A DNA stretch of 64,000 nucleotides from NCBI RefSeq assembly GCF_003334355.1, contig NZ_QOWP01000015.1, one strand, 5' to 3'. Under the pieces are notes generated by a model. That model searched no databases. It was not told the origin of the DNA and saw only the letters and a list, made by a program, of their open reading frames with translations. Shown here in pieces: positions 32,613 to 34,733 of this stretch. How positions within the stretch are numbered: position 1 is the first letter of the stretch; every line of letters begins with the position of its first letter. This DNA comes from Escherichia coli. Lineage in GTDB: Bacteria > Pseudomonadota > Gammaproteobacteria > Enterobacterales > Enterobacteriaceae. A program made the position numbers and the translations under genes.

Positions 32613-32650
32613 GGTGGCTTAGCCAGACTAAGCCACCGCTCTCGTTTTTT
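32613..32650 (+). terminator. Intrinsic terminator after yigF (overlaps the corA stop)
   Basis: Hairpin gtggcttag-ccaga-ctaagccac followed by a T-run. Confidence 0.55.
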
Positions 32651-33599
32651 ACAACCAGTTCTTCCGCTTAAAGTACAGATACGGTGCCAGGCCCGCGAGG
32701 ATCATAAAGATAATCGCGCCTGGGTAGCCGAAACTCCACTTCAGTTCTGGCATAAACTCAAAGTTCATCCCGTAGCTGGAGGCAACCAGCGTTGGCGGCA
32801 GGAACACGACGGATACCACCGAGAAAATTTTGATGATGCGGTTCTGCTCGATGTTGATAAAACCCATTGCCGCCTGCATCAGGAAGTTCACCTTCTGGAA
32901 CAGGGATTCGTTATGCGGCAGCAGGGATTCGATATCTCGCAGGATTTCACGCGCCTGCTCCAGTTGCCCACCCGGTAAACGCGCTTTACGCACCAGGAAG
33001 TTGAGCGCACGCTGGGTATCCATCAGACACAGGCGCACTTTCCAGCCGATATCTTCCAGTTCCGCCAGAGTGGAGAGCGCCTCGTCGTACTCATCGCCCT
33101 GATGCCCTTCCATAATCACCCGGCTCAACTGCTCCAGGTCGCTATAGATATTTTCAATTTCATCTGCCAACTGTTCGATTTTGGTTTCGAACAGATCCAG
33201 CAGCAGCTCGTAGGCGTTACCGTCCACCATCGACTGGCTACGGGCACGCATACGATACAGACGAAAAGCGGGCAGTTCACGCTCACGCAGAGTAAACAGA
33301 CGACCATCACGGATGGTAAATGCCACAGTGGAGTTACCGGCGTGATCTTCCGCATCTTCAAAGAAGAAGAAGGAGTGAATATGCAGGCCGTCGTCGTCTT
33401 CAAAGAAACGTGCCGATGCTTCGATGTCTTCCAGTTCCGGGCGGGTTGCCAGGCTCTGACCAAGTTCAGATTGTACGCGCAGTCGCTCGTCGTCGTCCGG
33501 TTCGACAAGATCAATCCATACTGCATTTACAAGGGGTTGTGACTCTTCGACTTCCAGCCGGGTCAGTCGGTTATTTTCCAGTTGAAATGCGCTCAGCAT
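32649..33599 (-). CDS. corA: Magnesium/cobalt transport protein CorA
   Basis: Track ORF to 33614; recognised 316-aa CorA begins [15 protein letters not shown] at ATG 33599; C-terminal GMNF motif and two TM helices. Confidence 0.95.
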
Positions 33600-33968
33600 G
33601 ACCGGGACTCCCAATGCTTAAAATATCGGACAGTTCGGTGGGCACACAGAAACAAATTGGGTTTCAGACCATTAAACAGCCTGACTCAGCGCGACGGGAA
33701 AAATTGAGGTCGCTGACAACCGCTAAGGCTATCAGCAAAAAGGGATAGCCTTAGGAGTTGATCCTGGATGACAGGATAGTGAGCCAGTATCTACTGGGTG
33801 TGTCCAAGGCGAATGTCCTCTTAGAGTGATCGTGCGCGCATGTTACGCCAGCAAAATTTTGCCGTCAACACGCAACAGAACACCACAGAACAATAGTTGA
33901 ACTTCGCGCTTTTTGGTACTCGTCAAGGTCGCTAACAGGATAAAAAAATCCCACATCCAGGACCTATA

Positions 33969-34733
33969 ATGGCGCATCGGCTACTCATTGGTAAAGGAAT
34001 GATCACCTTGAATCTCAAACGGATTTTTCTCGCCCTCACCTTACTTCCCTTGTTTGCTGTTGCCGCTGATGATTGCGCACTCTCAGATCCGACGCTGACC
34101 GTACAGGCGTATACCGTTAATCCTCAAACAGAGCGGGTGAAAATGTACTGGCAAAAAGCCAATGGCGAAGCGTGGGGAACGTTACATGCTCTGCTGGCGG
34201 ATATGAATAGTCAGGGTCAGGTGCAGATGGCGATGAACGGCGGCATCTATGATGAAAGCTATGCGCCGCTCGGTTTGTACATCGAAAACGGTCAGCAGAA
34301 GGTGGCGTTAAATCTCGCTTCAGGTGAAGGGAATTTCTTTATCCGTCCTGGCGGCGTGTTTTATGTCGCGGGAGATAAAGTCGGCATCGTTCGTCTGGAT
34401 GCCTTCAAAACCAGTAAAGAGATTCAGTTTGCGGTGCAGTCAGGGCCAATGTTGATGGAAAACGGTGTAATTAATCCGCGTATTCATCCCAACGTCGCCT
34501 CACGTAAAATTCGTAACGGTGTTGGGATTAATAAACATGGGAATGCCGTGTTTTTGTTGAGCCAGCAGGCGACAAATTTTTATGATTTTGCCTGTTATGC
34601 CAAAGCGAAACTGAACGTTGAGCAGCTGCTTTATCTTGATGGCACGATTTCACATATGTATATGAAAGGCGGGGCAATCCCGTGGCAACGCTATCCTTTT
34701 GTCACCATGATTTCCGTCGAGCGGAAAGGTTAG
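33969..34733 (+). CDS. yigE: DUF2233-family exported protein YigE
   Basis: 254-aa ORF with N-terminal signal-like hydrophobic segment; synteny corA-yigE-uvrD. Confidence 0.85.
   Translation: MAHRLLIGKGMITLNLKRIFLALTLLPLFAVAADDCALSDPTLTVQAYTVNPQTERVKMYWQKANGEAWGTLHALLADMNSQGQVQMAMNGGIYDESYAPLGLYIENGQQKVALNLASGEGNFFIRPGGVFYVAGDKVGIVRLDAFKTSKEIQFAVQSGPMLMENGVINPRIHPNVASRKIRNGVGINKHGNAVFLLSQQATNFYDFACYAKAKLNVEQLLYLDGTISHMYMKGGAIPWQRYPFVTMISVERKG

Follow-up and report, generated by a model that had tools for sequence, protein, structure and literature searches.

The corA–yigE spacer of Escherichia coli: the corA promoter and a 232-nt leader that very probably acts as a translation-coupled, Rho-dependent attenuator

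The window (the whole stretch of 64 000 nucleotides analysed here, from contig NZ_QOWP01000015.1) is E. coli chromosome, in which corA (33599..32649, minus strand; ATG at 33599–33597) and yigE (33969..34733, plus strand, in agreement with the mapped RefSeq annotation) diverge from an intergenic spacer of exactly 369 bp (33600–33968), much as the first-pass annotation had estimated (about 370 bp). An open reading frame (ORF) scan found no ORF longer than 44 codons within these 369 bp. The earlier statement that the spacer holds no credible ORF is therefore correct for conventional ORFs, but it overlooked the annotated 18-codon ysgD/corL. Similarly, the spacer had been judged to be of the right size and position for a leader element; the leader is indeed present, but it accounts for only the corA-proximal 232 of the 369 bp, the other 137 bp being the corA promoter and DNA upstream of yigE. 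The spacer is base-for-base identical to that of K-12 MG1655, and an 801-bp query across it found a match in all 5426 complete E. coli genomes; in 5432 of 5444 E. coli records the best match reached an identity of 99% or more. In E. coli, yigE lies between uvrD and corA; it is absent in Salmonella Montevideo, where uvrD lies directly upstream of corA, so that the divergent corA–yigE arrangement is lineage-specific and the promoter and leader are common to both. Directly downstream of corA, where yigF/yigG lie in the window, E. coli strain CP53 carries an IS1A.

A promoter scan detected one sigma-70-like promoter on the corA strand and no other (33868..33840, minus strand), comprising a −35 element TTGACG (33868..33863), a 17-bp spacer and a −10 element TAACAT (33845..33840) that is followed by the GC-rich discriminator GCGCGCAC. 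Conservation was assessed at CorA-anchored loci from 80 Enterobacterales species, and pairing in an alignment of 45 species; the −10 element together with the discriminator (33832–33845, minus strand) is invariant or nearly so across the 45 aligned species. GC-rich discriminators are typical of promoters inhibited by ppGpp/DksA; nothing specific on regulation of the corA promoter by ppGpp emerged from the literature searched. The transcription start site given here is literature-derived, having been deduced from the fusion oligos and numbering published for E. coli (Vézina Bédard et al., 2024; PMC11552253). The PcorA fusions of that study begin at 33908 (oligo 5′corA-309), its Ptet and lacUV5 fusion oligos are joined directly to GATCACTCTAAGAGG (PMC11552253, supplementary oligos), and the positions named in oligos corA41-71 and corA68-99 agree with the sequence only when the G at 33831 is taken as +1. 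The corA 5′ leader (5′ UR) therefore comprises 232 nt (33600..33831, minus strand), and all leader nucleotides (nt) are counted from 33831. By Salmonella numbering, in which U240 lies inside the AUG, +1 would correspond to 33833, i.e. 2 nt upstream of the 33831 of the E. coli paper. The published termination sites U211 and G216–U220 fit the sequence only with +1 at 33832, whereas the oligo names of the same paper imply 33831 (PMC11552253).

The start site of the published constructs thus lies 232 nt upstream of corA, and not within the 50 bp or so next to its start codon that the first-pass annotation had regarded as telling against a long leader. This bears directly on the notion that the spacer simply houses divergent promoters and that the corA 5′ UTR is short and does not function as a leader, to which we give practically no credence. 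It draws solely on the prior that many divergent spacers have such a size. Against it, 33868..33840 is the one place on the corA strand with a sigma-70-like promoter, +1 falls at 33831 according to the published constructs and the numbering of their oligos, and sequence and structure alike are conserved throughout the order from +1 as far as the AUG. Published data have already refuted it (PMC11552253).

A search of the minus strand for a short ORF with a Shine–Dalgarno (SD) sequence, as the first-pass annotation had proposed, found corL (33807..33751; leader nt 25–81), which RefSeq annotates as ysgD (b4799). It consists of a UUG start, 18 codons (MDTPSRYWLTILSSRINS) and a UAA stop, and is preceded, 9 nt upstream of the UUG, by the SD sequence AAGAGGA (33816..33822, minus strand; nt 10–16), the GAGGA of which is invariant in the 45-species alignment. 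The UUG start, single proline and internal CUG match the published description of corL (PMC11552253), and ysgD and corL are confirmed to be one ORF. Of the 45 other species sampled, 44 possess, within 300 nt of corA, an ORF of 17–19 codons that starts with TTG, and the start motif of corL (TTGGAC..CCCAGT) precedes corA in all 80 Enterobacterales species. In the one exception among the 45, Serratia sp. Ag1, an insertion in the leader has moved the corL motif further upstream. This insertion of about 80 nt in the distal leader (locus L073, about positions 1400–1480) is located between a conserved GTTGTC tract and the corA SD, with corL and the promoter intact upstream, and ends in CAACTTGAAGTATGAAGGGCATA, presumably akin to the end of an ERIC/IRU repeat.

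Such conservation might in principle reflect coding, with YsgD/CorL acting in trans as a functional small protein. The tagged YsgD protein has been detected in published work, PIRT-seq also detected ysgD, and the N-terminus of CorL (MDTPSR[YC]WL) is conserved. The nucleotides behave otherwise, however: synonymous positions are invariant throughout codons 1–9, the frequent Y7C replacement (20 of 44 sequences) corresponds to a U-A to U-G change within an RNA hairpin (hairpin 1, below), and the C-terminal half of the peptide shows unrestricted variation, although compensatory changes maintain its RNA hairpin. CorL variation thus tracks RNA pairing and not the peptide, which argues against a trans-acting protein, and the corL start-codon mutations act in cis on corA (PMC11552253). 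We consequently rejected CorL as a conserved peptide and regard a function in trans as very unlikely.

Within corL, an invariant ACACACCC (33796–33803, minus strand; nt 29–36; codons 2–4) is unpaired in both of the published folds of the leader. It is complementary to a GUGUG (33643–33647; nt 185–189) beside U188, and the two pair in the minimum-energy fold of the full-length leader. Pairing of ACACAC (nt 29–34) with this GUGUG was rejected as the cause of the invariance, the GUGUG not being conserved outside Enterobacteriaceae. Two further reading frames were noted around corL. A 24-codon ORF (UUG94–UGA168; 33664–33738, minus strand; MLIALAVVSD...) shares the frame of corL, begins four codons beyond the corL stop and overlaps stems B, D and E described below. 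With an ATG, TTG or GTG start in only 29 of 45 species and a C-terminal frame that is not conserved, it was discarded as a candidate gene and is probably non-coding, as judged from sequence; PIRT-seq and Ribo-RET work notes translation past the ysgD stop. The second ORF overlaps corL in the +1 frame (33733–33831, minus strand; nt 2–100; MPWT[HR]PVDAGS...), its first codon being ATG in Pseudocitrobacter, Shimwellia and two species of Pantoea, and UCG in E. coli. It may be the ‘CDS177’ (AUC start) that PIRT-seq reported as translated.

The leader RNA fold is more stable than those of all 200 dinucleotide shuffles (z = −3.7), and its parts can be arranged in two alternative ways. In the OFF state, folding of nt 1–125 gives the base helix of stem A (33748..33810, minus strand; nt 22–28 with 78–84), in which, by stepwise folding, the corL UUG start is paired with the corL UAA stop. 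This helix surrounds two hairpins (nt 35–48 and nt 55–71) in a three-way junction, and an outer helix is formed by pairing of nt 11–15 (AGAGG, the corL SD) with nt 89–93. The stem A base helix and hairpin 1 are paired in 99–100% of cells of the 45-species alignment, and hairpin 2 (nt 55–71) contains four pairs with compensatory changes. Stem-loop B (33710..33738; nt 94–105 with 111–122; 93.7% of cells paired) completes the OFF state, and its formation keeps the flanking pyrimidine tracts single-stranded in the predicted fold. The ON state instead contains stem-loop C (33717..33760; nt 72–76 with 111–115 and 78–88 with 99–109), which is mutually exclusive with A and B and is paired in 96.7% of cells, with three pairs showing compensatory change. 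It also contains stem-loop D (33691..33713; nt 119–123 with 137–141; 98.6% of cells), which encloses a CCUCAAUUUUUCCC tract. Stem-loop E (33664..33684; nt 148–153 with 163–168) was placed by folding, RNAalifold and coordinate transfer from Salmonella, and is paired in 95% of cells, with two pairs showing compensatory change.

Taken as wholes, the OFF fold is paired in 92.2% of cells (26–48% with slid partners) and the ON fold in 95.6% (20–40% with slid partners), these pair counts being made on the E. coli-derived structure and most helix positions being invariant, which leaves modest covariation support. Compensatory changes fall in the hairpin at nt 55–71, helix C and stem E, and invariant pairs are as expected for nucleotides bound by two folds and a reading frame. 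RNAalifold, run without the E. coli-derived structure, recovered A, B and E. The helices also coincide with the positions altered in published mutants, since the ON mutant swaps exactly nt 72–77 and 111–115 and the OFF mutant rewrites nt 101–118 (PMC11552253), a coincidence that confirms the helix assignment. The spacer is accordingly not a chance sequence, given its identity to MG1655, the E. coli-wide matches, the z-score of its fold and the motifs present in all 80 Enterobacterales species.

Computed folding energies of the two states are nearly equal (−40.3 kcal/mol for A + B vs −38.6 kcal/mol for C + D). With a simulated ribosome footprint over the beginning or the middle of corL, the predicted structure was the C + D fold, and a footprint at the corL stop codon gave stem B with the downstream tract unpaired. 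These modelled outcomes agree with the published switch, to which they lend plausibility rather than proof.

C-rich, G-poor tracts resembling a rut site, another element that had been proposed for this spacer, were found by a composition scan (33693..33748, minus strand). They flank stem B (nt 84–95, CUAUCCCUUUUU; nt 121–139, GACCUCAAUUUUUCCCGUC), the C/G ratio reaching a peak of 3.7 over nt 51–80, and they overlap helices C and D, by which they would hence be sequestered in the predicted ON fold. A Rut peak by H-SELEX is reported within the E. coli corA leader, and a corA 5′ UTR template was a strong Rho terminator in vitro. The published in vitro Rho/NusG termination sites (U211 and G216–U220, ±1 nt; PMC11552253) map here to 33612..33622 (minus strand), i.e. 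to a U-rich tract just before the corA SD and about 12–20 nt before the corA AUG.

The function of this leader has been studied in derivatives of MG1655, in which Mg2+ control of corA depends on the 5′ UR rather than on the promoter (Vézina Bédard et al., 2024; PMC11552253). In the same study corA responded to intracellular Mg2+, RNA polymerase (RNAP) ChIP-qPCR at corA gave a Rho termination score of 3.3, corA expression rose when the corL UUG was changed to AGG and fell when it was changed to AUG, and the ON and OFF structure mutants behaved as predicted. The rho R66S mutation raised RNAP within the corA ORF but left Mg2+ regulation at 2.4-fold, compared with 3.3-fold in the wild type, and in vitro termination amounted to 24% without Rho and was doubled by Rho/NusG (PMC11552253). 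The residual 2.4-fold regulation and the Rho-less termination imply that Rho provides only part of the regulation.

The latter figure could be taken to mean that stem-loop B is an intrinsic (Rho-independent) attenuator, the more so as a terminator scan flags 33738..33710, followed by CCTCAATTTTT. The U-run, however, begins about 8 nt past stem B and is interrupted, and it is some 90 nt farther on, at +211 to +220, that the mapped products end (PMC11552253). Together with the doubling of termination by Rho/NusG and the increase of RNAP within the ORF in rho R66S, the location of the mapped 3′ ends led us to set aside this reading of stem B as very unlikely.

Very probably, then, the spacer consists of the corA promoter and a 232-nt leader that acts as a translation-coupled, Rho-dependent transcription attenuator. 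RNA polymerase would start at about 33831 and transcribe the UUG-started, 18-codon corL. High cytoplasmic Mg2+ would favour efficient translation of corL up to its stop, where ribosomes would block helix C; stem-loop B could then form, leaving the flanking pyrimidine-rich tracts single-stranded as a rut site. Rho would load there and, aided by NusG, stop RNA polymerase around +211 to +220, shortly ahead of the ribosome-binding site of corA. Where corL translation is slow, stalled or absent, C and D would instead bury the rut tracts and polymerase would read into corA, with stem-loop E presumably setting where Rho can act. The Mg2+ response via the 5′ UR, the involvement of Rho, the termination sites and the effects of the corL-start and ON/OFF mutants have been demonstrated experimentally on the identical sequence (PMC11552253). 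Our analysis adds the sequence identity itself, the conservation of every part across the order and the finding that the two folds hardly differ in energy; the choice of fold by ribosome position and the manner in which Mg2+ is sensed are inferred. No sequence evidence contradicting the attenuator model was found.

It is on the sensing of Mg2+ that a different account deserves most attention, namely that the leader RNA itself senses Mg2+, in the riboswitch-like manner originally put forward for mgtA, and that Mg2+ binding, and not corL translation, selects A + B. The E. coli study allows Mg2+ to act either on RNA folding or on corL translation, and its corL-AGG mutant keeps a 1.3-fold response (PMC11552253); the near-isoenergetic folds could, moreover, be tipped by a small ligand effect. 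Arguing the other way, a cmscan of 33300–34300 against Rfam (E ≤ 10) found no Mg_sensor, M-box or family for the corA leader, returning only four chance hits (mir-76, AaHKsRNA54 and two snoRNAs), all far below their gathering scores. In addition, mutations of the corL start codon strongly alter corA expression (PMC11552253), and the UUG start and corL frame, unneeded by a pure riboswitch, are kept almost throughout (44 of 45 species, with the motif in 80 of 80). Direct sensing therefore appears improbable, if by no means as improbable as the other alternatives, and we favour the translation-coupled attenuator.

A second layer of control may be superimposed on this attenuator. Folding predicts a distal hairpin (33601..33639, minus strand; nt 193–231) with the character of an anti-SD structure, in which a UCC (nt 202–204) pairs with the corA SD GGGAG (33612..33608; nt 220–224). 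RNAalifold found the UCC:GGG pairing across the 45 species, and the corA SD was paired to an upstream partner in 38 of 40 distinct species sequences, compared with 59% when the upstream segment was shuffled. Our search of the corA leader literature found no description of this hairpin. We advance only tentatively, as a rather unlikely proposal derived from predicted structure, that an order-conserved anti-SD hairpin gates initiation of corA translation independently of Rho; if it did so, it could account for the 2.4-fold (vs 3.3-fold) Mg2+ regulation left in rho R66S. A related possibility is that translation which continues past corL, or re-initiates at the in-frame UUG four codons beyond its stop, alters the folding of B, D and E.

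In enterobacteria CorA serves as the principal Mg2+ channel, and its leader is a textbook-grade case of translation-coupled, Rho-dependent attenuation; across the Enterobacterales there is next to no variation in either fold, in the UUG start or, indeed, in the promoter discriminator. Since the element had been described in E. coli before, finding it here adds nothing new; what the present analysis contributes is a map that gives exact coordinates on the window for each published part.

The Salmonella corA leader reportedly received its first experimental treatment from Kriner and Groisman in 2015 (J Mol Biol). It adopts mutually exclusive folds, of which A + B expose a rut site and C + D sequester it; efficient translation of corL favours B and Rho-dependent termination, and stem-loop E positions termination (Kriner and Groisman, 2017; PMC5314796). 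Alignment of the E. coli leader with that of Salmonella Montevideo gave 97% column identity, with four single- or double-nucleotide indels, the Salmonella leader being 4 nt longer between shared landmarks. After these indels and the 2-nt offset in +1 are taken into account, Salmonella stem-loop E (152–172) corresponds to E. coli 148–168, the Salmonella pause site U192 to U188 (33644), and U240 to the U of the corA AUG. All parts of the Salmonella element, i.e. corL, stems A–E, the rut tracts, the pause equivalent and the termination window, align with E. coli. The suggestion that the spacer holds an equivalent of the Salmonella leader is thereby upheld, on the strength of this identity, of corL with its SD, of the C-rich tracts and of the experiments on MG1655 (PMC11552253). 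Its placing of such leaders ‘in related enterobacteria’ was right for Salmonella but too narrow, the element being documented in E. coli itself as well (PMC11552253); a 2025 review lists corA for both Salmonella and E. coli. The element described for E. coli in 2024 (PMC11552253) is this same element, without substantive difference, since its MG1655 sequence and the spacer examined here are identical.

Among other known systems, the mgtA leader with mgtL is alike in that an upstream ORF lies in a three-way junction, two exclusive folds are available, a rut site is exposed in the high-Mg2+ fold and the regulated gene encodes a Mg2+ transporter. It differs in having no detectable homology of sequence or structure with the corA leader. 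Unlike mgtL, corL contains one proline and few acidic codons, and the corA promoter is not controlled by PhoP; in E. coli, Rho was not found to take part at mgtA (PMC11552253). The tnaC-tnaA, speFL and cruR systems share with corA the principle that the behaviour of a ribosome on a short leader ORF sets the access of Rho to a nearby rut site. In those systems, however, a stalled ribosome physically shields the rut site, whereas in the corA leader the position of the ribosome would select the RNA fold, and efficient translation promotes termination.
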